Shown here one piece after another: positions 1,752-64,000 of a stretch of 64,000 bases of DNA. A program made the position numbers and the translations under genes. Under the pieces are notes generated by a model. The model had not been told where the DNA came from, did no database searches, and saw nothing but the letters and a program-made list of their open reading frames with translations. Origin of the DNA: a virus; the IMG/VR virus record IMGVR_UViG_2915168811_000001; one strand, given 5' to 3'. Position 1 is the first letter of the stretch; each line of letters begins with the position of its first letter.

Positions 1752-1877
1752 GACTCCCTCACCTGCCGGCACCGCGCCGGCCTCTGGTGCAGTAATGCGC
1801 GGCGGAGTGCACGACCGCCTTCGGGTGCCGTGAATCGGTCCAGCTGGCGTCGGAACGCCTCCCGATACGATTTCGGC

Positions 1878-2570
1878 ATGTCGCTTTCTCTGATCCATTC
1901 CTCGGTGCATGAATACCGAGGCCAGATCCAACAGCGGTTGACGACCGGATACAAAGCCAACGGGAGGGGAACGGCATCGAAAAAGCTTGGGCCGCAGTCC
2001 TGGCACGAGCGGGAGCGCGTACAGCTCGGCGGCGAAGTCATCGACTTGCTCTACTTCGGCGGGCACGGAATTGAAGCGAACCCGGGCACGCTCGAGCTCC
2101 CGAAACACTCCAGCATGGATGGAGAGCTCAAGGCAGCATCCACCCTGCTGCTGCCTGACGCCTTGCCGGGCGATGTGAACGCCCGGCTCATCTACTTCGA
2201 CTCCTGCTACCAGGCAGGGCAGCTGGATGCCCTCGTTGCGAAGTTCCCGAGCACGTTGATGTTCGCGCAGTGCAGCGTCTCCAGCTTCGAGGGCGCCACC
2301 AACAACGCGCGCCGTCTCGCCCGCGCAATGGAGCTGCTGTTCGAAGAGGCTGGCGGTTTTCCTGATGACCCGGCGACGCTGCGCGCTGAGCTCGGGCGGG
2401 TCAGCGGCCGCGGCCACGACCCGCTGCCTACGCAGAACGCCCGCAAGTCGTTCGTGTTCTGCGGGCACTGGTCCGCTGGATCGCATCGAGCGCGGCCCGC
2501 AAACGGACCGCTGCAGCCCTCCCGTGAAAACTGCCTGCGAAAGACTGACTGGGAGCTGCCGCCAAGCTAG
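1878..2570 (+). CDS. Caspase/CHAT-fold (clan CD) peptidase-like protein
   Basis: LLYFGGHG ... IYFDSC His/Cys dyad motifs; TACGAT -10 six nt before ATG 1878. Confidence 0.55.
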   Translation: MSLSLIHSSVHEYRGQIQQRLTTGYKANGRGTASKKLGPQSWHERERVQLGGEVIDLLYFGGHGIEANPGTLELPKHSSMDGELKAASTLLLPDALPGDVNARLIYFDSCYQAGQLDALVAKFPSTLMFAQCSVSSFEGATNNARRLARAMELLFEEAGGFPDDPATLRAELGRVSGRGHDPLPTQNARKSFVFCGHWSAGSHRARPANGPLQPSRENCLRKTDWELPPS

Positions 2571-2593
2571 CTCGGCGGCAGCTCCCAAAAACC

Positions 2594-3397
2594 TCACGAG
2601 TGGTAGTCGAAGCTGACGAGCCAGCCCTGCGGCTTCGCGCCCTTCTTGAGGGTTTGCGTGGACACCAGCACTTCGATGTTCCCGTCATCAGGCAGTGGGC
2701 TTCCGACGCGGACAAGGATCTCAGGCCGCTCGGCGTCGCTGCCGCGCACGAGACGCGCGGTGATGGTCAGCTCACCGATGACGGGATTGTTCTGCGCGAG
2801 CTTAACTGCGGCCGCGGTGGCCTCCGCAACCGTAGCGGCCGCGCCCAGGCGCTCGATGGAATAGCGCGCATTCGCGTGGATTTCGTAGACCGTCTTCGTT
2901 TTCCCTTCAGTCCGTGAAGCGCGGGGCTTGCGCGCCTTCGGGAAAGACACGATCTCCAGCTCGCTGGCGGTGATGCCGTGCTGTTTGGCCACGAGGTCAG
3001 CCAGCGGGGGCATCTGCACGTCAGCGCTGGAACCCATGATCGCGGCGTAGTTCATCCCGCGCTGCGCGTAACGGATGCGTTCACTGCTGACCGCGACTTT
3101 CAGCTTCCGGGTCTTCACGTCGAAATCAGCTGCGGAATACACCGGAGTCACGGTGGAGTGCTTGAAGGCATCTCTCATTCCGGCGTCGCTATCTACATGC
3201 CGGTACGCCTGTTCCTCAGTCATCGGTGCGGTGAGCAACCCCTTCCCTTGACGGGGGTTCCCCCGGTCATTGTCGGGGTTGTTCGCCCAGCTCGACACCG
3301 CCGTTTCGACCAGGTCGACCAGGAAATTCCGGGCAGCCATGCGTTCCTGGCTGAACCCTTCGATCGAGATGAACTCGCTGTGCAGACCGTGTCCCAT
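2594..3397 (-). CDS. Hypothetical protein
   Basis: ATG 3397 downstream of the minus-strand element copy at 3443-3454. Confidence 0.7.
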   Translation of the reverse strand: MGHGLHSEFISIEGFSQERMAARNFLVDLVETAVSSWANNPDNDRGNPRQGKGLLTAPMTEEQAYRHVDSDAGMRDAFKHSTVTPVYSAADFDVKTRKLKVAVSSERIRYAQRGMNYAAIMGSSADVQMPPLADLVAKQHGITASELEIVSFPKARKPRASRTEGKTKTVYEIHANARYSIERLGAAATVAEATAAAVKLAQNNPVIGELTITARLVRGSDAERPEILVRVGSPLPDDGNIEVLVSTQTLKKGAKPQGWLVSFDYHS

Positions 3398-3550
3398 GAC
3401 GCGCTCGCTTTCGTTCGAGCCGCACCCTGCGACCCTCACCCCATTGATGCGCGGCGCACCCTCCGTGAGGACGCTCACCTGTCCAGTCGCGGGGCCGCGC
3501 ATCAGTGTGATGAAGCCGCACCAAGCGGCAGCGAGAGGATCTGGAAAACC
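3398..3550. promoter_or_regulatory. Back-to-back divergent pair of the repeated element
   Basis: Minus copy 3443-3454 and plus copy 3495-3506, each with hairpin and RBS, in front of divergent genes. Confidence 0.75.
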
Positions 3551-4375
3551 ATGCAGCTCGACCACAAACTTGAAGTGCTCGACGCGGTCGCTCCCCTTGA
3601 GCTCAGCCCGATGATGCTCGTGGAGTACGGTTCGCGCGCGTACGGCACCGCAACCGATCAGTCCGACCATGACCTGCTTGGCGTCTTTGTTGAGTCTGAC
3701 GCGGAACTGTACGGACTGGATACCGCCGCCACCTGCAATTTCCGGCTTCGGCGCGACGGCCGCCTCGAGAAGATGGGGGTTTCCGCGAACGAAGCGAAGT
3801 CCGCCCATGACGTCGTTGAGATGCACTTCCACCCCTTGCGGAAATACGTGTCCCTCGCCGCGGCCGGCAACCCCACTGTGCTCAGCACCCTTTGGACTGA
3901 CCTGGGCGGCGAGGACAGCATCTTGGCTGGCGACGCCGCAGAGAAGCTGACCGCGAATCGGGACCTGTTCCTGTCCAAGCATGCCGCGTACCGTCACGCC
4001 GGGTACGCGCGCAGCCAGCGCGAGGCGATGCTCGGCCTCTCGAACCAGCGGACCAGCCGCCCGGACCTAGTGGAGGCGCACGGCTACGACGTGAAGTACG
4101 CCTCGCACATGATCCGCATTCTGATCTCCGGACTCGACCTGGTCCACGACCGGACGTACCATCTGCCGATGAAGGATGAGCACCTGGAGTTGCTCCGGGA
4201 GATCCGAGACGGGCAGTACAGCTGCGACGACGCAGTGGCGATGTCCGAGAAGCTGGAACACGACCTCGTCACCGCGGCTGAGGATTCCTCCCTCCCCGAG
4301 TCGGTTGACTTCACGAAGCTGAACGCGCTTCTGAAAGAGGTCCGCCACCGGCACTTCGGGGCGCTTTCCAGCTGA
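3551..4375 (+). CDS. Pol-beta superfamily nucleotidyltransferase (YcgL/RlaP-like)
   Basis: YGSRAYG...SDHD motif, GNP, YDVKYASHMIR. Confidence 0.85.
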   Translation: MQLDHKLEVLDAVAPLELSPMMLVEYGSRAYGTATDQSDHDLLGVFVESDAELYGLDTAATCNFRLRRDGRLEKMGVSANEAKSAHDVVEMHFHPLRKYVSLAAAGNPTVLSTLWTDLGGEDSILAGDAAEKLTANRDLFLSKHAAYRHAGYARSQREAMLGLSNQRTSRPDLVEAHGYDVKYASHMIRILISGLDLVHDRTYHLPMKDEHLELLREIRDGQYSCDDAVAMSEKLEHDLVTAAEDSSLPESVDFTKLNALLKEVRHRHFGALSS

Positions 4376-4455
4376 AGGTAACTCGGTCTGGAGACGCAAC
4401 GCCCACCGCGCATCAGTGAAGTGAGGCCGCACGGTGCGGCCCGTGAGAGGGCATC

Positions 4456-4866
4456 ATGCGTTTCAGTGCAGAAAATCCAGACCGGTTCAACGCGCTTCAG
4501 TACGCGAACGACGACACCAGTAACGCGTACAGCATGGGCGCGCTGTCGGTCATCAATAAGGTGGTTGCAACGGGCGAGGTGGGCGAGGATTTCATCGTTA
4601 AGGTCAACCGCATCGGGATCCGGAAGGGCCAGGACTCAATCCGCAACATAGACGACTTGGAGTCAGGAACCGAAGGGTTCTACGTCAGCGTCGCCGTCCG
4701 CGTTGACACTTTCGGCCCTAATGATGTCACTGAGGCGATGTCGAAGCTAGAGAAAGAGATCCTCGATGACCTGCGCAGCGCGAAGCTAGCTGCAGCCGAT
4801 GCCGAGGTGGAAGCGCTCAGCAAGAAGCTCGCCGCCGCCGAAGCGGCGCGCGCACGCCTGAACTAA
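4456..4866 (+). CDS. Hypothetical protein with C-terminal coiled coil
   Basis: ORF after element copy 4406. Confidence 0.7.
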   Translation: MRFSAENPDRFNALQYANDDTSNAYSMGALSVINKVVATGEVGEDFIVKVNRIGIRKGQDSIRNIDDLESGTEGFYVSVAVRVDTFGPNDVTEAMSKLEKEILDDLRSAKLAAADAEVEALSKKLAAAEAARARLN

Positions 4867-5094
4867 ACAGAATCTGGCCACCGCGCACTGAACTTCGAGA
4901 TTGACCGACTGAACGCGCTCGAGAACCACGCGAAAGTTGAGCGGGATCGTCTGCGCGTATCCCGCTGATCTCGAAGCGGTCGCCGACGAGTAACCGCGCA
5001 TGGATACAGGTGAGGCCGCAGGGAGCGGCCCTTCATCTGAATGGAACGCGCGCATGAACTGCTGCAGGAATAACTTCACCCGGACGGTCAAGCG

Positions 5095-5958: not shown

Positions 5959-6067
5959 CGCCGCCGCATCGCCGCACAGCCTGACGGTATTTCCGATCGA
6001 CTGCCGCAACGCCCACCGCGCATCACTGTGGTGAGGCCGCACCCCGCGGCCAAGATCTGGAGCACCC

Positions 6068-6394
6068 GTGTCCCTGCAGTTCATCCTCATTCCCGCCGAC
6101 GATGCGGCCCCGCGCTCAATCCTCACAGTCGAGGATCCGGAGCAGACCCTCGAGATCCTGCAGACGGCAGTGGGAGGGAACATCGAGTTCATCGACCTCG
6201 TCGCCCCGGACGCGAACATGTACCTCAACGAGGAAGGCAAGCTGCTCGGCCTGCCGCTCAACAACCGCGCCACGACGCTCGCCCGCAAGAGCATCCCGAT
6301 GGGTGATTTCATCGTTGGCGACGTCGTCATTGTTGGTGCGATCGACGACAGCGGCGACGAAACTTCCGCGCCACCAGCGCTCCTGAACGAGTAG
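6068..6394 (+). CDS. DUF3846 family protein
   Basis: LQTAVGGNIE...YLNEEGKLLGLPLNNRAT...IVGDVVI. Confidence 0.8.
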   Translation: MSLQFILIPADDAAPRSILTVEDPEQTLEILQTAVGGNIEFIDLVAPDANMYLNEEGKLLGLPLNNRATTLARKSIPMGDFIVGDVVIVGAIDDSGDETSAPPALLNE

Positions 6395-6529
6395 CGCCAT
6401 CGTCACGGACTGCGTCGACGACGGACAAGTCCAGCTGCTCCCCTCTGACTCCTAGCGTCCCTGTGCCGCGCGGCCGCGCATCACTGTGGTGAGGCCGCAC
6501 CGCGCGGCATGTGAGAGGACAGCCTGAAC

Positions 6530-7228
6530 ATGCGAGTAGTACAACCCATCAGCTCAGAGCCTGGGAACTTGGGCGGAGACCGCCGCGATACCCACCCTGC
6601 CTTCGGGACCGCAGTCGTCACCCGATCTCAGGGGACCGGGACCGCACTGTTTCAGAGCGACGTGAAGCATAACCACACGATCGTTCTTGCGATCAACCGG
6701 GCTGAACGAATTCGAGGGCTGAACATCGATCGCGTCCACTCGCGGGACAACCTTGTCGAGATTGAGATGAGCACCGCCCAGTGGGGCGCGCTTATCTCTT
6801 CGATCGGCATGGGTTCAGGTGTTCCGGTCACCATTCGAAGAACTGAGTCCGTACCGACGCTGCCTGACATTCCGTATGAGCCACGCCTTGCTGAGAACCT
6901 CTCCGAGGTCAGTGACGCAGTCACACGCATCTTGGCTCAGGCCCGTGCTTCGACCGAGAAACTCGAGTCAGCGATCACGGACAAGCAGGGCGCCAAGGCT
7001 ATCCGCGAAGCGCTTAGCTCGCTGAACGCAGCGCTCGGAAATGCTGAGAACAACGCCAAGTTCGCCGTCACCTCGTTGGAGCGCGCCGCCGAGCATGTTG
7101 TGTCTCAGGCGCGCAGCGACATCGAGGCGCACATGTATCAGACAGCTCAGACCAGCGGTCTAGCTTCACCGATTCAGATGCCCGAATTTGGCAGCACCGC
7201 CGCCATTGAACCGACCCCAGAGGGGTAG
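6530..7228 (+). CDS. Phage-type hypothetical protein
   Basis: HPAFG...LFQSD...EIEMSTAQWG; after element copy 6474. Confidence 0.7.
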   Translation: MRVVQPISSEPGNLGGDRRDTHPAFGTAVVTRSQGTGTALFQSDVKHNHTIVLAINRAERIRGLNIDRVHSRDNLVEIEMSTAQWGALISSIGMGSGVPVTIRRTESVPTLPDIPYEPRLAENLSEVSDAVTRILAQARASTEKLESAITDKQGAKAIREALSSLNAALGNAENNAKFAVTSLERAAEHVVSQARSDIEAHMYQTAQTSGLASPIQMPEFGSTAAIEPTPEG

Positions 7229-7303
7229 CGATCTCTCAATAGCCAGAATCCCGGCCGCGCATCAATGCAGTGAGGCTGCACCGCGCAGCCGGAACAGGAA
7301 GCC

Positions 7304-7891
7304 ATGACCCGCCAGTCCGCCGCACCGCTCCAGCATCAGTCGCTGTCACCGTCGAACCGCACCGCGCGCGAGCTGGTGCGCCTGCTGGTTGACGCCGGTG
7401 ACCTCTCCCCCGCGTACCAGCGCGGTTCGGTGTGGAATAACGACCAGCGCATCGGCCTGATCCGCTCCTGGCTGCTCGGCGTCCCGATCCCGTCGATCAT
7501 GCTGAGCAACCGAGTCAGCTCCCGCACGTGGCCCACGGACGCCGGCGGCTGGCCCGAGGGCGGGTACGAGCTCGCCGTGATCGACGGCAAGCAGCGCGTC
7601 GAGACCGCGCTCATGTGGTTCAGCGGTGAGCTCGCCGTACCGGCATCCTGGTTCCCTTCCGAGCACATCGAATTGACAGTCAACACGAACGACGGCCCGT
7701 ATGTCACCTTCGACCGACTCACCGCGGTCGGGCAGCGGCTGTTCGGAAACCGCGCCACGCTCCCCGTAGTGGAAGCGTGCGTCGGATCTGTCGAAGAGGA
7801 AGCAGCGCTCTACCTGCTCGTGAACGGCGCCGGCACTGCGCAGAACGATCAGGACATGGCGAACGCTCGCTTGGTGGTGTCCGGCGGGTAG
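7304..7891 (+). CDS. Stand-alone DUF262 (ParB/Srx-like, GmrS-type) protein
   Basis: PAYQRGSVW...LIRSWLLGVPIPSI...VIDGKQR. Confidence 0.85.
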   Translation: MTRQSAAPLQHQSLSPSNRTARELVRLLVDAGDLSPAYQRGSVWNNDQRIGLIRSWLLGVPIPSIMLSNRVSSRTWPTDAGGWPEGGYELAVIDGKQRVETALMWFSGELAVPASWFPSEHIELTVNTNDGPYVTFDRLTAVGQRLFGNRATLPVVEACVGSVEEEAALYLLVNGAGTAQNDQDMANARLVVSGG

Positions 7892-8366: not shown

Positions 8367-8486
8367 CTGTTGCGTTGACGTTGGACGGGTTCGGCCTCTC
8401 TGTTTTCTGCCCCCGCGGTCCGAGGTTTCACGCCGCGCATCTTTAGGTTGAGGCCGCACCGTGAGGCTGAGATCTGGAGTCATCGA

Positions 8487-8954
8487 GTGACCGAGCACAC
8501 CCACGACCCCCGACCACTCATCCGGCTTTCACACGACGAGGATACGCTGGACAAGCTTCGCGCTCGTGTCGTCTCCGAGGTGCTCCCAGCACTGACTCGA
8601 GCAATGGAGCCGATCGCTCAAGACGTCGCTGCCGAGCATGGTCTTACCGCCGAGGACACCGGCATCGTGATGGCACGTCTGGTTGCTGAATGTACCGATC
8701 TACACCGCTGGGTCATGGCGGGCCAGCTTCGCGCAGCAGGGGCGCCCATCCGTTCGGTCGTGTCCGGGCTTGGGTACGCGTCGAACACATCGGTGCAGCG
8801 CCAAATCGGTACGGCGGAACAGCCAGGACTTATTCGCAGAGCTGAAACTGCCTCTCGGCTGAGTGTCACAACTGGCACTCAGCAGGAAGTAGTCGACGAT
8901 TCAGGATCCTGGAGCTTTTCGGTTGCAGCACCGCACCGCGCATCACTGGGGTAG
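8487..8954 (+). CDS. Hypothetical protein, possible HTH
   Basis: GTG after GGAG RBS of element copy 8433; stop lies inside the next element copy. Confidence 0.65.
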   Translation: MTEHTHDPRPLIRLSHDEDTLDKLRARVVSEVLPALTRAMEPIAQDVAAEHGLTAEDTGIVMARLVAECTDLHRWVMAGQLRAAGAPIRSVVSGLGYASNTSVQRQIGTAEQPGLIRRAETASRLSVTTGTQQEVVDDSGSWSFSVAAPHRASLG

Positions 8955-8990
8955 GGCCGGGATCTTCCGGCCGTTGACCTTGGAGTTGCC

Positions 8991-9571
8991 GTGACTGAAC
9001 AGATTGCCCACAAAACCACTGACCCTCGAGTGATCGAGTGGCTGACGAATTTCCGTGCCATGCAGGACGCAGCGGACGCCAAGATGATTGCGCTGCCGGG
9101 GGCGTTCACTGAGATGTTCGGCCCGCGCGCGGACGGCGTCAAGCGCAGTCTGGTGCGGTTCTTCCGGCACGGATCGGACCTGATCATTCACGGCGTGATC
9201 GCGGAGGGCTCCGACCTCGCTGACCCGCCTGAGGGGACCCGGTTCGAAGGGAAGAATGTCATGGTCGGGCGGCGCACCACCAAGATCGGCAAGGCGTACG
9301 CGGCACTGATCTCCCAGCATTCAAGCCGGAATGTGGCTGCCGGAGCGCGTGCGGTCGGTTTCGCTGACGAGTTCACGGTTCCCGGATTCCGGCAGTGGGG
9401 CGACATCTTCCTGGACGAAGACACCGGGACGGTATTCCAGGTCGCCGGAGTGCGCGACGGCACCGAGTCGGCTGTCCTCGCGATCATCGAGCGGTCCGGT
9501 GTCCCTGGGAGCGCGCGAAACTGTCGGAGTTCTACGCCGCGAAGGAGCGCTGCGACGCGGCCGGGAAGTAG
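8991..9571 (+). pseudogene. Hypothetical protein, frameshifted near 9503; paralog of 11207-11803
   Basis: Adding 1 nt at GTCCCTGGG restores ...WERAKLSEFYAAKERCDAAGK*, matching the paralog C-terminus SEFYAAVERHDDAAK. Confidence 0.7.
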
Positions 9572-9649
9572 CTGCGGTCCCGCCTCTCGCCGAACGCACC
9601 GCGCATCACTGTCTCCAAAGGGGCAGCATCGCGCAGCCCCGCATGAGCA

Positions 9650-11137
9650 TTGGTGGAAACTGTGGGTCGAAGTGGCGTGTTTGGGTTCATCGGGGCGGCG
9701 CTGGTCGCCGGGCTGATCTGGATGCTGTTCCCGGTGATGGTGCATGAAATCTGGCAGGGCGTCCGGGCCTCCTGGGTAGTGCTGCTTGTCGCGGTCGTGC
9801 TCATCGTTCTGGCGGTAGTTTTCGCTGCGATGGAGATCTCCTTCCTCGCTTTCCTGGCTGGGGTCGGTGCGGTTGGCTGGCTGATCTTCGGGGGCATGGG
9901 CATCCATTTCCAGCAGATGCAGGCGGTCGCGGCGTCAGTCACAGTCGTGGACGGTGACCCGAACGATCTGTCGTTCCGTGAGCGCGCACCGTACGACGTC
10001 GCGAAAGCCACCTCGAGCCGCACCCTCGGCAATACGACCGGTGACGCCACCGGGATCGTGCGCGCGTTGCCGGCGCGCGGCGACACCGGAGAATACACGA
10101 CAAGTGTGGTGCGCCGCGGCCTGTTCCAGGGTTACGAGTCCACGCAGGTGCTCACTCCCCCGCTGTTCGGTTCAGCGTCCGCCGCGGACGTGAGGTTCTG
10201 CAAGTTCGATGAGCGTGCCACGCTGCGCTTCGGCGGGCTCGGCTGGGGTAACGACCTGAAGCGAGCGATCGCGTTCATCACCCCGCTGGGCACCCGCGCC
10301 GATCAAGGGGACGCGTTCGTGACCTGCGACGGCGATACGCCGATGGTGTACGCCCCGCTGACGAAGCAGGTGGGTGCGATCACGCACCGCGTGCCGGCTG
10401 GCGTCGCTGTCTACAACGGGTCCACCGGGAAGCTGAGCTACTACGACAATTTGAGCGATGACCTGCCACTGTACCCGCAGTCCATCGCCACCGCGCAGCG
10501 GGAATCTTCGACCGCCTCCGAAGGGTTCTGGGACTGGATGTTCAAACGGTCCGGGTTTGAGGACACCGGGAAGGATACCTCTGACCCGAACGGCTCCAAC
10601 CGGGCTGAGTTCGGGCTCGCGAACGACGGCGGCATCAACGAGCGTGGCTGGCAGTCCTATGTCACCCCGCTGAACTCGCGCGGCTCCTCATCGTCACTGG
10701 TTGGCCTCGGCACCGTGAACGCTTCCCACGTCGAAAATGGGGTCCTGAACCCGTACTCCGTGCACCTGTACCCGGAGGGGAAGTCGCGCCAGGCGAACTC
10801 CGCCGTGGCGGACGCCATCACCGGCGGGATCCTCGACGGCTACAAAGCGTCTGGCTTGAAGGTCTTTGAAATCGTGCCAGCGAAGGACTGCACCTGGGTG
10901 GCATCCATCGGAAAAGCGCAGTCGATTCTCTACCGCGCTTCGATCGCTCCTAACGGCGACATCACCCTGATCGACGGAAGCAGCCCGGACGAGCAGCCCA
11001 ATGTCGAGCCGAACGGCGAACAGCCCGCCGGGTCTGTGGACCTCGAGAAGCCGCTCGACAGTATGACCGTCGCGGAGCTGAATGACTTCGGCGACGCAGT
11101 GCTGGCCGAGCTCGCCGCCCGGGCGGCGCAGAAGTAG
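9650..11137 (+). CDS. Membrane protein, 3 N-terminal TM segments plus large extracytoplasmic domain
   Basis: 495-aa ORF with hydrophobic N-terminus. Confidence 0.8.
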   Translation: MVETVGRSGVFGFIGAALVAGLIWMLFPVMVHEIWQGVRASWVVLLVAVVLIVLAVVFAAMEISFLAFLAGVGAVGWLIFGGMGIHFQQMQAVAASVTVVDGDPNDLSFRERAPYDVAKATSSRTLGNTTGDATGIVRALPARGDTGEYTTSVVRRGLFQGYESTQVLTPPLFGSASAADVRFCKFDERATLRFGGLGWGNDLKRAIAFITPLGTRADQGDAFVTCDGDTPMVYAPLTKQVGAITHRVPAGVAVYNGSTGKLSYYDNLSDDLPLYPQSIATAQRESSTASEGFWDWMFKRSGFEDTGKDTSDPNGSNRAEFGLANDGGINERGWQSYVTPLNSRGSSSSLVGLGTVNASHVENGVLNPYSVHLYPEGKSRQANSAVADAITGGILDGYKASGLKVFEIVPAKDCTWVASIGKAQSILYRASIAPNGDITLIDGSSPDEQPNVEPNGEQPAGSVDLEKPLDSMTVAELNDFGDAVLAELAARAAQK

Positions 11138-11206
11138 GGCGACCGCGCATCACTGTCCATGAACGCGCGGGCCCCCTGCCCGCAAACCCTGTGAAACGGA
11201 GTCCCG

Positions 11207-46671: not shown

Positions 46672-46701
46672 GCCCGCGCCCGCGGGCCCCGAAAGGCACC
46701 C

Positions 46702-48710: not shown

Positions 48711-48725
48711 GCGAAAGTGGAGAAA

Positions 48726-51842: not shown

Positions 51843-51906
51843 ACTCACTCCGTCGCCGCGCATCACCGTGGATGAGCTTCGACAACCGACGCCCGGAAGG
51901 ACCACC

Positions 51907-52310: not shown

Positions 52311-52577
52311 ATGAGATCTGTATCTGAAGCCGAGTTCGCGGCGATCGTCGAGAGAGTTCTCGACAGCAGCCATCGCTACATACAGGCTGCTGTCTCCGGC
52401 CACTCCGTCATGCTCACCTTCACGTCGAACTCGAGACGGATCGATCAGAGGGTGAACATCGACTTCGACCTCGCCGGCGGCAACCCTGTCATCCATCAGA
52501 ACTTTCATGGCTCGAACCAGCCATTGTTCTTCGCGAGAAAGGTCCGCGACGGAATCGTGGAGGCCCTCGCGCGATGA
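52311..52577 (+). CDS. Hypothetical protein
   Basis: AGGGG RBS; stop directly before element copy 52578. Confidence 0.6.
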   Translation: MRSVSEAEFAAIVERVLDSSHRYIQAAVSGHSVMLTFTSNSRRIDQRVNIDFDLAGGNPVIHQNFHGSNQPLFFARKVRDGIVEALAR

Positions 52578-52629
52578 CCGCGCATCACTAGGGTGAAGAT
52601 CCGCACGGTGCGGCTCTCGGAAGGGCATC

Positions 52630-55167: not shown

Positions 55168-55201
55168 CGTAGGGCGCAGGTTGCGGCCGCGAAGGAGAGT
55201 C

Positions 55202-55690
55202 ATGGACGCCCCTCATCAGCAACAGCTCGAGCCAGCTCGCGTCCGTGAAGCAGTCATCGTCGACGTCGACGGGACCCTTTGCGATGTCAGCAGCATTCGC
55301 CACTACATCGCCGAGGGGCTGCTGAATCGTGACTTCACGTCCTTCCATGGAGCCTCACGACTCTGTCCGCCCATTCAGGCCACGTTCGCTTGGGTCGACA
55401 AACACCGTGCCGCCGGCCGCACGGTCATCGTTGTCACTGCCCGAGCTCAGCGCTGGGAGTTCTTAACGAGGCAGTGGCTTCGCAAATGGGAGTTCCAGCA
55501 CGACTGGCTGTTCATGCGCGGAGATCGCGACGAGCGCCGCGACGATTTCGTGAAGGCTGACATTCTCGCCCGCATCCGCGCTGCCGGCTACACCGTCGTC
55601 GCCGCGATCGACGACAACCCCACCGTCATCGCACTGTGGGAGCGAGAGCAGATCCCTGTCACCGTTGTGCCCGGGTGGTGGGAAGCGTGA
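55202..55690 (+). CDS. HAD phosphatase (polynucleotide kinase 3'-phosphatase type)
   Basis: IVDVDGTL, VTAR, LFMR..D.R.D..VK, IDDNP. Confidence 0.88.
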   Translation: MDAPHQQQLEPARVREAVIVDVDGTLCDVSSIRHYIAEGLLNRDFTSFHGASRLCPPIQATFAWVDKHRAAGRTVIVVTARAQRWEFLTRQWLRKWEFQHDWLFMRGDRDERRDDFVKADILARIRAAGYTVVAAIDDNPTVIALWEREQIPVTVVPGWWEA

Positions 55691-56799
55691 ACACCAAGCG
55701 CGGAGTTATGAGCCTCGAAACCCTCGAGCGCAGCCTCCACTTCCTCGACCTCACCGGCATCACCGACCCCGGGCAGGTCGAAATCCGCCGTCTGTACCTG
55801 CAGATCGCGAACGGATCCGTACCGGCCGGACCAGTCCTTGCGGGGCTCGAAACCGTCGCTGGCGGGGAGCTCGCTGTGGGGACCCTGCCGATCCGCACCG
55901 ACCCGCGCACCCTCGTACACCGGTTCGACTGGCAATGGTGGAGCAACTGCGCCGCGCTCGAAAGATTCGTCGCGGAGCATGGGCGGCTCCCAAGCACAGT
56001 GTCCGCCGACCCTGAAGAGAAGCGGCTGGGCTTTTGGGTGCAGACCCAGAGGAATTCAATAGCCGGGAGGGGTACGCCGTTGATCGCAGACCAGGTCGCC
56101 CGGCTCGTACTCGTTCCTGGGTTCGTTGTAGACCGTGCGCCGACATGGGGTGATCGCTTCGCGGCGCTCGAAAGGTTCGTCGCGGTGCACGGGCGGACCC
56201 CAAGCAAGGTGTCAGCTGACCCGGAGGAGAAGCGGCTGGGCGTCTGGGCGAACAAACAGAGGAGTTCAATCGCCGGCAGGGGTACGCCGTTGACCGCGGA
56301 GCAGGTCGCCCGGCTTGTGCTCATCCCCGGGTTCGTTACGGACCGCGCACCGACATGGGGTGAAAGCTGCGCAGCTGTCGAGTTGTTTGTCGCGGAGCAC
56401 GGCCGGGTCCCAAGTACGGTGTCTACGGACCCGGAAGTAAGACGGCTGGGCGGCTGGGTGCAGACTCAGAAAAGCAGGATCGCGGGCAGAGGGGCAGCGC
56501 TGAGCCCGGATCAGGTCGCCAGGCTCGAGCTCATTCCTGGTTTCGCTACAGACCGTGCTCTGATATGGCTCGAAAGCATCGCCGCGGTCGAGACGTTCGT
56601 TACTGCACAAGGTCGGCTCCCGCAGCAGAAGGCCACTGGTCCGGAAGAGAAGCGGCTGGGCGGCTGGGTGGACAACCAGAAAAGGTCAATCGCAGGCAGA
56701 GGTGGGACGTTGACCGCAGATCAGGTCGCCCGGCTCGTACTCATCCCTGGGTTCGTTACGCCAGTTGTCCGCCGCCACTTGGACGGCAAGCAGGGGTGA
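55687..56799 (+). CDS. Helicase-associated (HA) repeat protein
   Basis: Four 70-aa repeats FVAEHGR.PS...EEKRLG.WV..Q. Confidence 0.85.
   Translation: MNTKRGVMSLETLERSLHFLDLTGITDPGQVEIRRLYLQIANGSVPAGPVLAGLETVAGGELAVGTLPIRTDPRTLVHRFDWQWWSNCAALERFVAEHGRLPSTVSADPEEKRLGFWVQTQRNSIAGRGTPLIADQVARLVLVPGFVVDRAPTWGDRFAALERFVAVHGRTPSKVSADPEEKRLGVWANKQRSSIAGRGTPLTAEQVARLVLIPGFVTDRAPTWGESCAAVELFVAEHGRVPSTVSTDPEVRRLGGWVQTQKSRIAGRGAALSPDQVARLELIPGFATDRALIWLESIAAVETFVTAQGRLPQQKATGPEEKRLGGWVDNQKRSIAGRGGTLTADQVARLVLIPGFVTPVVRRHLDGKQG
55935..56760 (+). repeat. Four tandem 210-bp intragenic repeats
   Basis: Related GAAGAGAAGCGGCTGGG-like segments at 56014, 56224, 56434, 56644. Confidence 0.9.
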
Positions 56800-56869
56800 C
56801 CGCGCGCCGCCGCGCCGCGCATCACTCTGGGTGAGGCTGCATGGTGCAGCCAGACTTGGAGTGCTCTGC

Positions 56870-59140
56870 ATGACCGTCACTGCTTTGGCCGCGCCGCCCG
56901 CCCTTGGCACTAAGTTCGCTTTGCGCCGCGATCAGCAGGACGCTGTTGCTGCGCTGTATAACCATTTCGTGGCGAAGGACCGTAAGTTCGGCCGGTACAT
57001 TTCGGCGTGCGGGACCGGGAAAACTGTGGTGATGGCGAGGCTGCCTGAGGTGCTGAAAGCGAGCACCGTCGTGGTGTTGGTGCCGAGTTTGAACCTGGTC
57101 ACGCAGACTTGGGATGCGTTCGCGCGGCAGCTTGGCGTTGACGGGTTTCAGGGGTTCATCGTCTGCAGTGACGATCAGCGTTCGCGCGCGAAAGCGACGG
57201 ACTCCGACTCGGTCGATGATGAGGACCGGATCACCACGAAAGTTCAAGCGAACGTAACGGAAGATGAGCTGGCTGCGAAGTTCCACGGGCAGGTACTTCG
57301 GGATCCCGCCACGATCGGTCATGCCCTCGACACGATGACGAACCGCACCATTGTGTTCTCCACGTACCAGTCCGTGCATCTGCTGCGCGACGGCCTACGT
57401 GCCTCCCGATCCGGTGAGGTGGATCTGCTGATGTGCGATGAAGCCCACTTCCTGGTGCAGTCCAAGCCTGAGAAGGTGAAGGATCGCCAGCATCCCGCCA
57501 ATATCGTGCTGAAGCAGCTGCCCGCGAAACGGAAGCTGTTCGCGACCGCGACGCCTCGCACAGTGGAGGGGTCCGGCGTGTTCTCCATGGATGACACTGA
57601 GCTGTTCGGAAAAGTCGCGCATGAATACAGCTACCCGGAGGCGGTCAAGGACGGCGTCGTTGCTGAGTTCGACATCGTTGTCTGCCAGGTGGATCGTGAG
57701 CAGGACCTCACCCGGTTCACGTCGGAGCTGAGGGACCGGTTCGGGCTCGGAGGCCCTGTTGGCCTCGGTTACGACATCTCCCACGACAAAGTCCGCAGCA
57801 TCGTGATCTCCCACACCCTGTCGAACATGATCAAAGACGGCCGGGTTTCTCGGGCGCTCACCTACTCGTCCAGTATTCCCAGGCTGAAACAGAACGCCGC
57901 GGACCTGAACCGTTTCCTCGGTCCGGGCTGCGCGGTGCCGCTGTCCTCCCAGTCGAGCACGAAGCAGCGCATCGAAGGGGTGCGCAAGCTGGATGCAGGC
58001 GAAATCAACGTCATCACGAACTGCGGGCTGTTCGGCGAAGGGCATGACACCCCGGCTCTGGACGCGGTCGCGTTCGTGGACCCCCGCCAGTCCGTCACCC
58101 AGATCGTCCAGGCCATCGGTCGCGCCTGCCGCATACCGTACGGCCAGTCCGGGAAACGCGCCATCGTGCTCGTGCCGGTGGATGACTTCGACTACGACCA
58201 GCAGGGACGACTTCAAGTGGACATCCACGGCCGCGCGACTGTAGATACCGCCGCAGTCAGGAAGGCACAGAACGGGCAGTTCGCCCTGCTCGAAACCGTG
58301 CTCGCCGCCATGTCATCGCCGGGCCTGCGCCTCGTTGACGCTGCGGAAGGTATCCGCGGGGAGCTTGCAGGTCGCGGGCGCCGCAGCGGCCAGACGCCTG
58401 AGGCGGTCCGGCCGCTGCGTGGAATGCCGGGCAAAGAGCACAAACCGGGCGTCGGCATTAGCCCGGCCGAGCTTGAAGTCATGCTGAATGAAACCCCTGC
58501 GGAGGCCCCATCTGTGGGTGCTGACGCGGAAGTGAACTTGATCGTCGACCGTCCGTTTACGGACCGCAGTGACGCTTTCGACACGTCCGGGCTGACGGCG
58601 AAAGATGAGTTGATCGCAGCGTTTGTGCGGGAAAGTGCAGTGAACCCGCTGATGATCGCAGACCACCGGGGATACCTCAGTGCAACCGTCGACCACGCCA
58701 TCCGCGACGCCGAAACCGGGGAGCGCGTCATCACGGACTATCGACCTGATGTGAAACTCTGGCGCACGTACCAGCTGATCCGCACTCGCGCTGGTCGTGC
58801 GACACTGCTGAAGCACCTCCCTTCCAGCCGCACAATTGAAGGTGACGTGGACGGGAAGCCGATGTTCCTTGACCTGGACCGGGACGCTTTGCGTGACATC
58901 ACCGGTCGGTCCCATGAGCTTCGCTTACAGGTCGCGGCGATCAGCGCTGCGATCCCGTCCGCGAACCTCATTCAGCTTGGTGTCAAAGCTGCGTGCTCCG
59001 AAGCGCGTCTGATCGGTGGCCCGAACCTGAACGCTCAAACCCGGAAGCATCGCAACGGCGAGCAGTCCCAAGTGTTCGAGCGCGCGTTCCGTTACGCCGG
59101 GTGGGAGCCGGGAAAGGATTGGACCGAACTGACCCCGTGA
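56870..59140 (+). CDS. SF2 DEAD/DEAH-box helicase (ResIII-like)
   Basis: ACGTGKT, DEAH, TATP, LFGEGHDTP, QAIGRACR. Confidence 0.92.
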   Translation: MTVTALAAPPALGTKFALRRDQQDAVAALYNHFVAKDRKFGRYISACGTGKTVVMARLPEVLKASTVVVLVPSLNLVTQTWDAFARQLGVDGFQGFIVCSDDQRSRAKATDSDSVDDEDRITTKVQANVTEDELAAKFHGQVLRDPATIGHALDTMTNRTIVFSTYQSVHLLRDGLRASRSGEVDLLMCDEAHFLVQSKPEKVKDRQHPANIVLKQLPAKRKLFATATPRTVEGSGVFSMDDTELFGKVAHEYSYPEAVKDGVVAEFDIVVCQVDREQDLTRFTSELRDRFGLGGPVGLGYDISHDKVRSIVISHTLSNMIKDGRVSRALTYSSSIPRLKQNAADLNRFLGPGCAVPLSSQSSTKQRIEGVRKLDAGEINVITNCGLFGEGHDTPALDAVAFVDPRQSVTQIVQAIGRACRIPYGQSGKRAIVLVPVDDFDYDQQGRLQVDIHGRATVDTAAVRKAQNGQFALLETVLAAMSSPGLRLVDAAEGIRGELAGRGRRSGQTPEAVRPLRGMPGKEHKPGVGISPAELEVMLNETPAEAPSVGADAEVNLIVDRPFTDRSDAFDTSGLTAKDELIAAFVRESAVNPLMIADHRGYLSATVDHAIRDAETGERVITDYRPDVKLWRTYQLIRTRAGRATLLKHLPSSRTIEGDVDGKPMFLDLDRDALRDITGRSHELRLQVAAISAAIPSANLIQLGVKAACSEARLIGGPNLNAQTRKHRNGEQSQVFERAFRYAGWEPGKDWTELTP

Positions 59141-59202
59141 GTCCGCACCGCGCATCACTCCTGATGTAGGCCGAAGCTTTCGGCCGGAATCAGGAGCCAG
59201 TC

Positions 59203-62200
59203 TTGTCGATCCCTCGTGCCGCTCAGCAGGCAATTTCAGCTTTGGAAGCGCTCGCGTCCATCCCGGCGGGAGGCGAAGCTGATTCTGTTCAGCGGGAGGT
59301 GCTTTCGGCTTGGACTGGTTGGGGTCCGCTCGCACCGGCGCTGGGTGTTCTCGTGGATGAGCGGTGGCAGGACACCGCCGATCGGCTCGAAGCGCTGCTG
59401 TCGCCGGAGGCGTTCACCTGGGCGCAGGACGTGTGCGACACAAGCTACTTCACTCCCACGGTCGTCGGCGAGGCGGTGTTCGATCTGCTGCGCCGTTCCG
59501 GCTTCACGGGCGGCCGCGTGCTCGAACCCGGCGTCGGGTCCGGCGCGCTCATCACCGCAGCTCCTGCGGACTGGGCGATCGACTGGACCGGCATTGACGC
59601 TGACCCGACCGCGGCGCGGATCGCGCAGCTGCTGCACCCGGACGCCACGATCATCGCGAAGCCGCTGCAGGACCAGCAGTTCCCGTCAGGCTCATTCGAC
59701 GCGGTGATCGGAAACGTGCCGTTCTCGAAATCAGGCGTGTACGACCCGAACTTCAGTGTGCACAAGCGCCCTTCACTGCACACCTACTTCACGGTGCGCG
59801 CACTCGACGCCGTCAAGCCCGGCGGATACCTCGTGCTGATCACGAGCCGCTACTTCCTCGACTCCATCGACGACATTGCAGACACCGTGTTCGGCGGTCT
59901 CGCCGACCTGATGGCTGCGGTGAGGCTCCCATCCGGCGCGTTCGACGGCACTGAAGTGGTCGCCGATATTCTCGTGCTGCGCCGCCGGGAGGATCCGCGA
60001 ATTTCAGGCGGCGTCCTCCCGATGGAGATGGTCCAGCGGAGCGTCCGATCGTACGCGCGGTACGGCGACACTTCTACCACCGAAATGCTGGTGCAGCGGC
60101 GATCCGAGGTGCCGCACGAAGTGCGTGAATTCAGCGTCACCGTGTCATCGCTCTGGGAGGATCACCCCGCGTTGATTGCAGGGCGCATGGAACCCACCGG
60201 CTACCTTCCGGCGCCGCTGAAAGTGCGGACTGATGATGTGGCAGGGTCGATCCGCGCCGCAGTGCATGCGGCGAAGGCGCTGTACTCCCCTGAGGACCAG
60301 CGACCCGTCGACTCACTTCCGGGGCTTCCCGAGATCGCACTGTGCGACGCGGAGGGCCGCAAGGAGGGGTCCTTCCACCTGATCGACGACGTCGTGCACC
60401 AGGTGGTCGGCGGTTCACTGCGAGCGACGACGAAAGCCTCCAAGGAGCTCCGAGCGCTGATCGCTCTGCGCGACGCTGCCGTGGCGCTGATTGAGCTTGA
60501 ATCAGACACCGCTCTTGCCGACGCGAAGATCGCTCCGCAGCGCGCCGCCACGCTTGCGCTGTACGAAGCGTACGTCAGCTCGTTCGGGGCGATCGGCCGA
60601 GGCAACCTCACCGAGGGGAAGCCGGACCCGGACACCGGAGCCCCGTCGTACACCTGGCGTCGCCCGTTGATGGGCGGGTTCCGGAAGGATCCCGACTACC
60701 TCACCGTGCTCGCCATTGAGCATTTCGATCAGGACACCGGCGAGGCTTGCCCCGCGCCGATCCTGCTGCGCCGCGTGAACTTCGCCCCCGTCCCCGTCAC
60801 GAGCACGGACAGCCCTGCTGAGGCGGTCCACCTTGCAACGGACCGCTCAGGGGTGGTCGACATCGATCACGTCGCCTCCCTGCTCGGTACCGACATTCCG
60901 GGCGCCGAAGAAGCCACCGCCGGTCTGGTGTTCACAGATCCAGTGCGGCAGGAGCTCGTCACCGCGGGCGAATATCTGTCAGGGAATGTCCGGGTGAAGC
61001 TCGCGGCGGCGGAGGCCGCTGGCGCGGACGCCAACATGGAGGCGTTGCGCGCAGTCCTTCCCGCACAGCTGGGCCCGCTCGACATTCGTCCGCAGCTCGG
61101 CGCACCCTGGATCAGCGCTGACATCATCCGCACCTTCATCGGCGACGTACTGAAGATGAACCCTTCCGTGAGCTACATTCCGGAGCTCGCTGTTTGGGAG
61201 GTCGGGAAGTCCTACGGCGGCGACCTGCAGTCCCGCACCGAGTTCGGCACACCGGACATCGAGCCTGTGAAGCTGCTGGAGCTCGCGCTGAACGGCGCAG
61301 TCCCGGTTCTGTCGGACGAAGTGTTCGTGGACGGGCGATGGAAGAAGGTGAAGAACTCCACGAAATCCCTCGCCGCAGAGCAGAAGCAGCTCGCGATCCA
61401 GCAGCGCTTCGAGGTCTGGCTGTGGGAGGAAAAAGACCGAGCCGATCAGGTGTGCAACGAGTTCAACCGCCGTTTCCGCTCGCACCGCCCGCGCCGCGGC
61501 GACGGCCAGCACCTCAGCTTCCCGGGACTCAGCACCTCAATTGAACTGTGGCCGCACCAGAAAGATGCTGTGCAGCGGATCATCACCGACCAGCGCACCA
61601 TCCTCCATCACCCGGTCGGCGCCGGCAAGACGCTCGAAGCTATCGTCGGCGCGGTGAAGCTCAAGCAGCTCGGCCTCGCTCAGAAGCCGCTCATTACCGT
61701 CCCGAACCACCTGCTCGAGCAGATCGCACGCGAAGCACGTACCGCCTACCCGACGGGCCGTTTCCTGATCGCCGGACGTGACGAGGTCACGAAGGAGAAC
61801 AAGCGCCTGTTCGCGGCCCGCTGCGCCACGGGCGACTGGGACGCCGTCATCATGACGCACACCGCCTTCGCCTCCATCCCCGTCAGCGCGGAGCTTGAAA
61901 GCCGCTGGGTTGAGGAACGGAAAGCCGAACTGCGCGACGCCATGTCGAGCATCGAGCAGTACTCGAAAGGGCAGAAGAAGGTCGCGGCCGCCGTGCGCCG
62001 CCTGGAATCCCAGCTGATGGAACTGCGCGACGACGCCCGCCGGGACGAGCACACCATCACGTTCGAACAGCTCGGCGTTGACCATGTCAGCGTGGATGAA
62101 TTCCACATGTTCCGCCGACTGATGGTCACCTCCAACAGTCAGTCGGGGTTCTCGCTCGGTCATTCCAAGCGCGCCACCGACCTGCTGCTGAAAGTGCGTT

Positions 62201-63954
62201 CACTCACCGACCGGCACCCGGGAAAGCCCGTGTTCGCTGGCTTCACCGGCACCCTGATCTCGAACACGCTCGCGGAAGTGTTCGTGTGGCAGTCGTACGT
62301 CCAGCCTGAACGCCTTCAGGAGGCTGGGGTCAGTAATTTCGACGCCTGGGCGGCGACGTTCGTGCGCTTCGAGACAGCGGTCGAAGTGAAGCCGACCGGT
62401 CAGGGGTTCCACATGCGCCGCCGGCCGCGCGCCATCCGGAACGCACCGGAGCTCTACGCGATGCTTTCCGAGAATTGCGACCGCGTCACCGCGGAGCAGA
62501 TCAATCTCGAGCGCCCGACGCATGAAACCCATGACGTCGTCAGCCAGCCGAGCGATGTGCAGCAGGACATCGTGGAAAGCCTCGCCTACCGCGCGGACCG
62601 AATCTACGCCGGTGGGGTGGACCCCCGAGAGGACAACATGCTCGCCATCTGCGGCACCGGGCGCGCAGTGGCGTTGGACCCGCGCCTGCTGCATGCCGAC
62701 GGCGGCAGTCCCAAGATGAGTGACGCGACCGCGAGGATCACCAAGCACTACCTGCAGAACCGAGGGCGCGCCTTTCCTGGCTCCGCGGTACCGGGAATGT
62801 TCCAGCTGGTGTTCTGCGACCTCGGCACGCCGAAGCCCGGCGACACATCCACGTACGGTCGCCTTCGCGCTGAACTGATCGCGGGAGGGATCCCCGCCGC
62901 CATGATCCGTTTCGTGCACGAAGCGACCACCGATAAGGCGCGCGCTGCGCTGTTCGCTCAGTGCCGTTCAGGTGAGGTGGCTGTGCTGATCGGTTCGACG
63001 GCGAAGATGGGGATGGGCACCAACATTCAGACCCGCCTCGGCGCGCTGCATCACCTCGATGCGCCCTGGCTGCCCTCCGACCTCGAGCAGCGCAACGGCC
63101 GGGCCCTCCGCCCGAAGAATCACTGCCCGCACGTCGACATCTACCGCTACGTCACCGAAGGCACCTTCGACGCCCTCACCTGGGAGACACTGCACCGCAA
63201 GGAGCTGTCGATCGGCCGGTTCCTGAACGCAGGGGACGTGGAGCGCGACATCGACGACGTCACTGAGGCTGCCCTGTCGTACGGTCAGGTGAAAGCGCTC
63301 GCTACCGGTCGCCCTGAGCTGCTGCGGCACGCGGAGATCTCCGCCGAACTCCAGAAGCTCCGCCTCATGCGTTCCGTGTGGGCGCAGCAGGTCAACGCCG
63401 CGCACAGCGGAATCGCCACACTGAACGGTTACGCCGACGGCGGGGAGCGCAGACTGGAACGCCTGGCCGAAGCGACGGGCCGTGACCGGAATAGGCGGGA
63501 TGAAACTGATCTGCTCGCTACCGACGTGGTGGAAGCCGCCCGGAAGAAACTGACGGGATCCTTCTACAGCCCCCGGCGATCATGTGACGGACTCTCCCTC
63601 TCCCTGAAAAGCTCATCGCTGTCTGGCTTCGAGGTGACAGTGGAGCACGAATATCTGAACCTCCACTCGTTCGCGCTCACCCGGAAGGAGATTCGCCGCG
63701 GCCCCCGTCATGTCGCGAAACTGATCCGCTCGACGGTGCAGAACTTCAGCGACGACCTGCCCGAAATGATGAAGCGGCTGTCCTCGGACATCGTCGAATA
63801 CCGCCGGCGGGCGGATGAGAGCCGACGGTTCGTAGAAACGGCGGTGTTCGACCGGGAGGCAGAACTCAGCGAGCTGGTCGCGGAGCGCGCGCGTCTCGAA
63901 TCTGAGATGGCCCAATCAGCCGAGCCGGCACATCTGGAAGCCGTCGCGGCGTAG
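59203..63954 (+). CDS. DarB-like adenine methyltransferase-SNF2 helicase fusion
   Basis: VLEPGVGSG, GNVPF, HPVGAGKT, VDEFH, TGTLISN, GTNIQ, EQRNGR. Confidence 0.9.
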   Translation: MSIPRAAQQAISALEALASIPAGGEADSVQREVLSAWTGWGPLAPALGVLVDERWQDTADRLEALLSPEAFTWAQDVCDTSYFTPTVVGEAVFDLLRRSGFTGGRVLEPGVGSGALITAAPADWAIDWTGIDADPTAARIAQLLHPDATIIAKPLQDQQFPSGSFDAVIGNVPFSKSGVYDPNFSVHKRPSLHTYFTVRALDAVKPGGYLVLITSRYFLDSIDDIADTVFGGLADLMAAVRLPSGAFDGTEVVADILVLRRREDPRISGGVLPMEMVQRSVRSYARYGDTSTTEMLVQRRSEVPHEVREFSVTVSSLWEDHPALIAGRMEPTGYLPAPLKVRTDDVAGSIRAAVHAAKALYSPEDQRPVDSLPGLPEIALCDAEGRKEGSFHLIDDVVHQVVGGSLRATTKASKELRALIALRDAAVALIELESDTALADAKIAPQRAATLALYEAYVSSFGAIGRGNLTEGKPDPDTGAPSYTWRRPLMGGFRKDPDYLTVLAIEHFDQDTGEACPAPILLRRVNFAPVPVTSTDSPAEAVHLATDRSGVVDIDHVASLLGTDIPGAEEATAGLVFTDPVRQELVTAGEYLSGNVRVKLAAAEAAGADANMEALRAVLPAQLGPLDIRPQLGAPWISADIIRTFIGDVLKMNPSVSYIPELAVWEVGKSYGGDLQSRTEFGTPDIEPVKLLELALNGAVPVLSDEVFVDGRWKKVKNSTKSLAAEQKQLAIQQRFEVWLWEEKDRADQVCNEFNRRFRSHRPRRGDGQHLSFPGLSTSIELWPHQKDAVQRIITDQRTILHHPVGAGKTLEAIVGAVKLKQLGLAQKPLITVPNHLLEQIAREARTAYPTGRFLIAGRDEVTKENKRLFAARCATGDWDAVIMTHTAFASIPVSAELESRWVEERKAELRDAMSSIEQYSKGQKKVAAAVRRLESQLMELRDDARRDEHTITFEQLGVDHVSVDEFHMFRRLMVTSNSQSGFSLGHSKRATDLLLKVRSLTDRHPGKPVFAGFTGTLISNTLAEVFVWQSYVQPERLQEAGVSNFDAWAATFVRFETAVEVKPTGQGFHMRRRPRAIRNAPELYAMLSENCDRVTAEQINLERPTHETHDVVSQPSDVQQDIVESLAYRADRIYAGGVDPREDNMLAICGTGRAVALDPRLLHADGGSPKMSDATARITKHYLQNRGRAFPGSAVPGMFQLVFCDLGTPKPGDTSTYGRLRAELIAGGIPAAMIRFVHEATTDKARAALFAQCRSGEVAVLIGSTAKMGMGTNIQTRLGALHHLDAPWLPSDLEQRNGRALRPKNHCPHVDIYRYVTEGTFDALTWETLHRKELSIGRFLNAGDVERDIDDVTEAALSYGQVKALATGRPELLRHAEISAELQKLRLMRSVWAQQVNAAHSGIATLNGYADGGERRLERLAEATGRDRNRRDETDLLATDVVEAARKKLTGSFYSPRRSCDGLSLSLKSSSLSGFEVTVEHEYLNLHSFALTRKEIRRGPRHVAKLIRSTVQNFSDDLPEMMKRLSSDIVEYRRRADESRRFVETAVFDREAELSELVAERARLESEMAQSAEPAHLEAVAA

Positions 63955-64000
63955 ACACCGCGCATCACTACTGGTGAGCCGCACCGCGCGGCCGGAAACA

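Follow-up and report, generated by a model that had tools for sequence, protein, structure and literature searches.

A gene-start box repeated across a megaplasmid-like actinobacterial element has the features of a private promoter, probably read by element-encoded sigma-like proteins

The 64,000-nt stretch of DNA analysed here (IMG/VR virus record IMGVR_UViG_2915168811_000001; hereafter the window) carries a 13-nt sequence box repeated 36 times, in most cases shortly upstream of a gene. The 36-copy repeat is real and, as far as can be judged from sequence, its copies are very probably promoters; the element's own sigma-like proteins are the probable readers of these promoters. The window has a GC content of 64%, its proteins belong to a contig of 217,787 bp and have their closest named relatives in Leucobacter; complete related plasmids (375–608 kb) occur in Curtobacterium, Arthrobacter, Pseudarthrobacter, and Paenarthrobacter, and we infer that the contig is a plasmid or megaplasmid-like element. 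An earlier reading of the window from its letters alone (the sequence-only reading) had described the repeat, to which this analysis adds the register of the start site, a comparison of five box-bearing plasmids with three that lack the box, and a second paralog of the sigma-like protein.

Exact matches to the core CCGCGCATnnnT numbered 33 in the window (31 on the plus strand and two on the minus strand, at 1802 and 3454), compared to a mean of 1.3 and a maximum of 6 expected by chance under a 4th-order Markov model of the window. Three further copies with one mismatch (16418, 36515, and 51856) bring the set to 36, the approximate count first given, while a degenerate 37th copy at 33715 was held outside it. 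A purine immediately precedes the core in 33 of 33 exact copies, and the box is therefore 13 nt long (R-CCGCGCATnnnT); 23 of the 36 copies are exactly CCGCGCATCACT. The boxes point sense to the next gene, including the two on the minus strand, and none occurs within the 38.5–44.5 kb block or the umuD-fic-umuC block, in both respects as the sequence-only reading had it. Eight gene-start copies sit inside or across the 3′ end of an upstream coding sequence, with five of those upstream genes supported by Pfam; this placement, the 37th copy, and a sister box described below are absent from the sequence-only reading. The core reads CAT-nnn-T and does not provide the TAnnnT at -12 to -7 of host sigma A, a mismatch that had been correctly noted. 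No column from -40 to -2 upstream of the window boxes was conserved above chance (maximum 0.24 bit, P = 0.30), and no -35 signal was found in the window using upstream weight matrices derived from two related plasmids, D40 and pACHL01.

Outside the window the box is rare, as had been anticipated for chromosomes. The 13-nt box had 30 matches in ~454 Mb of actinomycete genomes (20 for the reversed control) compared to 23 in the 64-kb window, a density of ~0.07 per Mb in 121 actinomycete genomes, a set that does not include the host's own chromosome, versus 360 per Mb in the window (~5,000-fold). One of the 30 matches falls in genome G017, on which no claim is built, and four box matches in genome G036 were judged to be chance. 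Searches for the exact pattern in GTDB, metagenome, and viral contigs returned only chance matches, mostly coding, and PLSDB held no close DNA relative of the window. A match to a described RNA family, which would have spoken against a private element, was sought in Rfam and none was found in the window at the gathering score (an undescribed family would be absent from Rfam).

The related plasmids supply a register for the box. In the Curtobacterium plasmid D40, CCGCGCATA occurs 105 times, on both strands across 600 kb, and in 41 copies an ATG or GTG follows the first C at a distance of exactly 17 nt, which leaves no space for a ribosome-binding site (RBS); 49 of the remaining 64 have a pyrimidine-purine step at +17, and two copies stand 45 and 59 nt 5′ of tRNA genes. 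Plasmid pS16 has the same box as D40 with a +17 ATG peak, the CCGCACACAT form found on pACHL01, pYJN5-1, and an A. caoxuetaonis plasmid shows the +17 peak as well, and so does Lysinibacter with its ATGs. The Leucobacter luti-like, HY1910, and Lysinibacter loci each spell the box in their own way, and an independent element (L218, L220) has the box form of the window (final CT, five spacer bases, TGAA). Because leaderless mRNAs starting on ATG are common in actinobacteria, +17 is taken as the start site. Within the window, a pyrimidine gives way to a purine at offset 17 or 18 in 34 of the 36 copies (against a background of 0.52; nominal P = 3e-8, the copies not being independent), and a sister box at 34250 stands 18 nt from the ATG at 34268, calibrating the start site; the TG of TGAGG is therefore the predicted start, and (G)TGAGG, which had been listed as a separate piece of the cassette, is better read as that start site itself. 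The box thus appears to be conserved at a fixed distance from an inferred start site. An upstream CGGNGAG is present at about -38 to -32 in Arthrobacter-group plasmids, with a weak trace in D40 and none in the window, so that the missing -35 holds for the window, as originally stated, but as a trait of its lineage only.

Several other observations concern boxes and promoter-like repeats on the related elements. Five near-identical repeats on D40 (322349+, 419124+, 437685+, 533893-, and 225957- [L080:35576]) have the private box within their left end; one of them precedes an annotated IS607 tnpB, which suggests an insertion sequence with a captured plasmid promoter. On L220, a Transposase_mut (IS256-type) element has inserted at 9071 (minus strand), right where transcription is predicted to start in a cassette that L218 retains uninterrupted, and an IS605-type gene lies downstream of a second box at 6940. 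The Leucobacter luti-like element L032 has another box class with a GTAAT end, 6–7 nt before leaderless ATGs (7947-, 9220, 12039, and 13050). A third motif, CGCATGTG-like, precedes membrane or transfer-type backbone genes (L218:3421, L219, L220:11044 and 17352, and pACHL01) and has no gene-start form in the window. Long promoter-like repeats with a host-type -10 (TACACT, TACAGT, TATACT) occur on a box-lacking Frondihabitans plasmid (L079/W02) and a B. longum megaplasmid (W08); these cassettes may be the same design run by a host sigma.

Downstream of the box, a hairpin begins 2–4 nt after the predicted transcription start and is followed by an RBS and no U-tract. The stem is more stable than random 32-mers (mean, -11.1 versus -7.1 kcal/mol) and more stable on the sense than on the antisense strand (P = 0.003), with 17 cells changed on both sides in a covariation analysis (score 0.358 versus 0.175, with a caution from the tool on relatedness); stability and covariation both support the 5′ hairpin that had been placed, ahead of an RBS, between core and start codon. 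Comparable stems are only occasional in D40 leaders, and the uniform hairpin would therefore be an addition of the window lineage. A stem at the extreme 5′ end of an mRNA slows its decay, and the hairpin here probably protects the 5′ end.

The window also encodes a candidate of the class of protein that could read such a box. The product of P0168 (34268–35296) has ~130 relatives, and a profile of the family compared to the PDB matched sigma factors in 26 of 27 cases (best E = 1.1e-4), while Pfam placed Sigma70_r2 in 28 of 127 members, Sigma70_r3 in five, and Sigma70_r4 in none. The structural model of P0168 (predicted local distance difference test [pLDDT], 81) had top matches that were mostly sigma region 2 (Z 6–7, root-mean-square deviation ~3 Å over 70–77 residues), and its C-terminal domain folded alone reached a pLDDT of 50; the region 2 helical bundle of a sigma-70 protein was recovered and the region 4 helix-turn-helix (HTH) was not. 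A full member of the family occurs once in each of the five box-bearing plasmids, and plasmids from Frondihabitans, Tsukamurella, and Bifidobacterium have neither the family (0/3) nor the box (0/3). Two further backbone genes, one with region 3 and HTH matches and one putatively sigma-like, follow the same distribution (5/5 and 0/3) and adjoin a WhiB-family gene in D40. In five of six related loci inspected, the exception being Lysinibacter, the sigma-like gene has the family box 16–17 nt before its own ATG. An operon on D40 (L230:4002–8001) contains an AAA ATPase gene, a WhiB-family gene, 326-aa and 137-aa genes, and a sigma-like gene, with the two long hypothetical genes kept in 5/5 box plasmids. 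P0168 itself is an additional paralog on a long branch, encoded away from the usual backbone locus, and on L218/L220 the window's box form adjoins a backbone-type sigma-like member; a backbone paralog or a complete sigma is therefore the likelier reader, and it is doubtful that P0168 itself reads the box. Scoring five candidates per genome in 401 actinomycete genomes gave no match to the family, a sampling too thin to show anything. Rathayibacter also has the family (P0189 cluster), with a 3.4-Mb contig among the locations, and integration of some elements is therefore conceivable. Dozens of unrelated proteins on pACHL01, pYJN5-1, and D40 begin with a short peptide that is also present at the N terminus of P0168 (34268–34340).

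A number of results weigh against a promoter family with a sigma-like reader of its own. The sigma assignment of P0168 appears remote, as Foldseek with the whole model returned nothing significant and common helical folds also reach a Z of ~7. The five box-positive plasmids fall into just two clades, and any backbone gene tracks the box equally well, so co-occurrence cannot pick the reader among the candidates, which include a WhiB-family gene and three or more sigma-like backbone genes. For the hairpin, RNAalifold on an automatic gapped alignment gave no consensus structure.

In the window, 27 copies lie 49–57 nt 5′ of a frame of at least 65 codons and four lie 61–78 nt 5′ of such a frame. 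The core-to-start distance of 49–57 nt in the sequence-only reading holds for 29 copies (53 nt in eight), two of which (14496 and 16418) open only dead frames of 15 and 4 codons. Copy 4994 has no clear start, copy 24241 has neither hairpin nor start, and copy 63958 runs off the window end. The copies and the sigma-like gene are as follows (ORF, open reading frame; distances are from core to start codon).

1749–1803, minus strand: cassette (core 1802–1791), 51 nt to a 205-aa ORF
3395–3455, minus strand: cassette divergent to the 3495 copy, 57 nt to a 267-aa ORF
3494–3553, plus strand: cassette, 56 nt to an RlaP-like nucleotidyltransferase
4405–4458, plus strand: cassette, 50 nt to a 136-aa ORF
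4993–5040, plus strand: variant cassette, hairpin present, start codon not clear
6015–6070, plus strand: cassette, 52 nt to a DUF3846 gene
6473–6532, plus strand: cassette, 56 nt to a 232-aa ORF
7254–7306, plus strand: cassette, 49 nt to a GmrSD_N (DUF262) gene
8432–8489, plus strand: variant cassette, 54 nt to a 155-aa ORF
8935–8993, plus strand: cassette, 55 nt to a 241-aa ORF, paralog of 11207
9598–9664, plus strand: cassette within the upstream ORF, ~63 nt to a 491-aa membrane-like ORF
11142–11209, plus strand: cassette, 64 nt to a 198-aa ORF
14495–14551, plus strand: cassette, ATG at 53 nt, only 15 codons
16417–16473, plus strand: one-mismatch copy, 92% identity over 64 nt with the 17067 copy, frame ends after 4 codons
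17066–17122, plus strand: cassette, 53 nt to a 475-aa conserved hypothetical gene
18589–18647, plus strand: cassette, 55 nt to a 65-aa ORF
20089–20145, plus strand: cassette in the upstream ORF tail, heading a long small-gene run, 53 nt
22539–22620, plus strand: core with a weak hairpin, 78 nt to a 131-aa ORF
24240–24252, plus strand: core alone, without hairpin or start, doubtful member
27449–27505, plus strand: cassette, 53 nt to a helicase-associated (HA) domain gene
28582–28639, plus strand: cassette, 54 nt to a 164-aa ORF, then dCMP deaminase
29631–29684, plus strand: cassette in the dCMP-deaminase tail, 50 nt to the NADAR gene
30129–30184, plus strand: cassette in the NADAR tail, 52 nt
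30489–30545, plus strand: cassette spanning the upstream stop codon, 53 nt
33714–33768, plus strand: degenerate 37th copy, 51 nt to a 93-aa ORF 5′ of the sigma-like gene
34250–34270, plus strand: sister box CCGCACATA, 18 nt to ATG, without RBS (leaderless)
34268–35296, plus strand: sigma-like gene P0168, 342 aa, with an N-terminal tag, putative sigma regions 2 and 3, and a helical C-terminal domain
35919–35972, plus strand: cassette, 50 nt to a HAD_SAK_2 gene
36514–36578, plus strand: one-mismatch copy in the HAD tail, 61 nt
37815–37871, plus strand: cassette at the left edge of the inserted block, 53 nt to a 178-aa ORF
44577–44629, plus strand: cassette, 49 nt to an 83-aa ORF
44921–44977, plus strand: cassette, 53 nt to a 194-aa ORF, ATP-grasp gene
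46652–46704, plus strand: cassette in the ATP-grasp tail, heading a macro-domain gene run, 49 nt
51855–51909, plus strand: one-mismatch copy, 51 nt to an HTH_3 gene
52577–52632, plus strand: cassette, 52 nt to dprA
55151–55204, plus strand: cassette in a methyltransferase tail, 50 nt to a PNKP phosphatase
56814–56872, plus strand: cassette, 55 nt to a ResIII helicase
59147–59205, plus strand: cassette, 55 nt to the 1583-aa methylase-helicase (TTG start)
63957–64000, plus strand: cassette truncated by the window end

The observed repeat, its spacing, the hairpin, the sigma-like genes, and the co-occurrence of these genes with the box are consistent with a model in which transcription, the function of the hairpin, and the identity of the reader would be as follows. 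Each copy would be a double-stranded promoter with a 5′ leader, private to the megaplasmid-like element. With a start 17–18 nt after the first C, CCGCG would lie at an extended -10 (about -17 to -13) and CAT-nnn-T would be the -10, the A of the core falling at -11/-12, with transcription starting on the purine of the TG step in TGAGG. A 5–8 bp GC stem from 2–4 nt onward would shield the 5′ end, followed by the RBS and start codon. Host core RNA polymerase loaded with a divergent element sigma-like protein would be the reader and would co-activate dozens of cargo genes (nucleotide metabolism, repair, methylase/helicase, and anti-defence-type functions). The 17-nt leaderless spacing, the pyrimidine-purine step at 17/18, the hairpin covariation, and the sigma-like genes all favor the 'element-private extended -10 promoter with 5′ hairpin and RBS' put forward in the sequence-only reading. 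More speculatively, and in our view improbably, tagged P0168, made from its own leaderless promoter, might be transferred with the DNA and activate all box promoters simultaneously in the new host, a delivery that would give a plasmid a phage-like early programme, with further cryptic sigmas driving later classes.

Among the alternatives, the one with the most to recommend it, if still unlikely, is a promoter read by host sigma A (or B) via an element activator or appropriator (WhiB-like or T4 MotA/AsiA-like), in which the box would be an activator site joined to a poor -10. A WhiB-family gene lies within the sigma-like operon of D40, a start at +18 would put the invariant T at -7, as in TAnnnT, and repeated cassettes of host type (TACACT or TATACT) are found on other actinobacterial megaplasmids; however, the invariant bases are the -10 region itself, in which -12 is a C instead of the T that sigma A requires, D40 and pACHL01 lack a T at -7, and the element's host-type promoters (umuD and lsr2) differ in look from the box. 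The box could also be an operator for an element repressor that keeps establishment genes off in the donor and releases them in the recipient (ArdK/CUP or pLS20-family EGeRS2 type). Regulons of this kind are known (PMC6289460, PMC8708921), the cargo is similar to establishment genes, and many copies include a partial inverted repeat TCAC-N3-5-GTGA, but this repeat is variably spaced and missing in relatives, the core is asymmetric, and the box stands in constant register with the start site. No host-type promoter stands beside the box (none in 1–20 kb; no upstream conservation), and the host promoter overlapped by a repeated operator that marks CUP and EGeRS2 was not found, making an operator quite improbable.

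The 'recombination hub' of the sequence-only reading fares worse. The 16418 copy is 92% identical to that at 17067, first codons included, and paralogous genes at 8991 and 11207 each have a copy, but only 13 nt are conserved between unrelated flanks, eight copies lie in or across upstream coding tails, a fixed start-codon distance is needless for recombination, and no integron-type recombinase was present among the window genes scanned; the 16418/17067 pair is incidental local copying, and a site mainly for recombination or cassette exchange is very unlikely. A Frpo-type promoter that works as single-stranded DNA immediately after transfer, one of the analogues originally suggested, would account for 34 of 36 copies lying on one strand and for a cargo that is leading-region-like (PMC11541004). 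It is rendered more remote still by core complements within 250 nt that are not above chance, the absence of sigma A hexamers, either alone or base-paired to a complement within a long DNA hairpin, a hairpin that is 3′ of the core, and D40 copies on both strands. Least likely is a translation signal akin to the mycobacteriophage start-associated sequence (SAS), another of the suggested analogues. The box is tied to start codons in a fixed orientation, but the 13-bp SAS/ESAS repeat sits at the RBS position (PMC3203893, PMC7302621), and the box is either 49–64 nt off with a separate RBS or 17 nt from the start without one, and in D40 also occurs 5′ of tRNAs. Overall, what would be expected of a promoter for an element-encoded alternative sigma of the SigN/gp55 type appears to be present, namely the spacing, a rare non-sigma-A sequence, and an encoded sigma-family protein.

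Cargo genes in the window include nrdF, dUTPase, dCMP deaminase, NADAR, macro domain, DprA, UmuDC, GmrSD, ArdA, Lsr2, and the 1583-aa methylase-helicase, and HTH genes occur at 277, 32031, and 51907. Leucobacter sp. cx-169 has a recorded paralog of one of the window proteins, and pieces of a near-identical element were present in one wastewater DNA run, with short-sided joints, evidence that was left unused. A host-type TACACT -10 precedes umuD (48680–48728), overlapped by a perfect actinobacterial SOS box, and this promoter explains why the umuDC block has no cassette. The Lsr2 homolog (35320–35680), directly 3′ of the sigma-like gene, has a leaderless TACAGT promoter. The cassette-free block at 38500–44550 is lower in GC and holds type I S and M subunits, a short resolvase fragment, and ArdA, which here lies outside box control. 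Approximately 20 small overlapping phage-like ORFs are densely packed at 20143–26954, with few cassettes heading the run, and tandem helicase-associated domains at 55947–56757 are encoded by four 210-nt repeats.

Plasmid genes are usually taken to use host promoters and a few plasmid regulators. This Micrococcales megaplasmid family, some members of which are in culture and completely sequenced (pACHL01, D40), seems to run up to 100 or more transcription units on its own promoter code, in the manner of a phage, with sigma-like proteins that standard annotation leaves as hypothetical. No description of the box or of the sigma-like genes was found in a literature search of mostly open-access papers. 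If true, the system would offer a testable orthogonal sigma-promoter pair for actinobacteria and a one-domain test of specificity change in sigma regions 2 and 3, as each lineage spells the box differently, and would explain host-independent on/off control of plasmid cargo.

Repeated upstream elements at the head of scattered establishment operons are shared with CUP (ArdK, IncN plasmids, PMC6289460) and EGeRS2 (pLS20 family, PMC8708921), which are host-sigma promoters with repressor sites, and with EGeRS1 of pLS20-family plasmids, which is 400–600 bp of inverted repeats (PMC8708921), whereas the element here is a 13-nt non-host box. The SAS/ESAS of cluster K mycobacteriophages, whose position overlaps that of the RBS, and an 18-bp motif with a TATA-like core in cluster EC Microbacterium phages (PMC3203893, PMC7302621) are likewise asymmetric, oriented, start-associated repeats in actinobacterial mobile elements, but differ in sequence and position. 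Frpo/ssi elements (PMC11541004) also head anti-defence-type cargo. Their self-complementary -35/-10 duplex is not present here. The late promoters of phage T4 consist of a single -10 box with no -35 and are read by gp55, a divergent sigma without region 4. The -10-region box, the missing -35, and a sigma-like protein without region 4 are common to both systems, whereas the box here is GC-rich and on a plasmid-like element, the sigma-like protein has a putative region 3 and an extra C-terminal domain, and coupling to a sliding clamp is not evident. SigN (ZpdN) of Bacillus subtilis pBS32 is a plasmid-encoded sigma that activates its own promoter and whose regulon is confined to the plasmid (PMC6751061), and the sigma-like genes here similarly have the family box 16–18 nt before their own ATG. 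SigN, however, is recognisable as a sigma, reads -35/-10 promoters, is controlled by LexA, and has a regulon that is small and lethal; the system here has several cryptic sigma-like proteins, 36 to >100 promoters in several classes, and no -35 in the window lineage. SigN of pBS32 is the nearest working model, with gp55 serving as the one for a -10-only promoter, and neither matches in sequence, scale, or sigma architecture.

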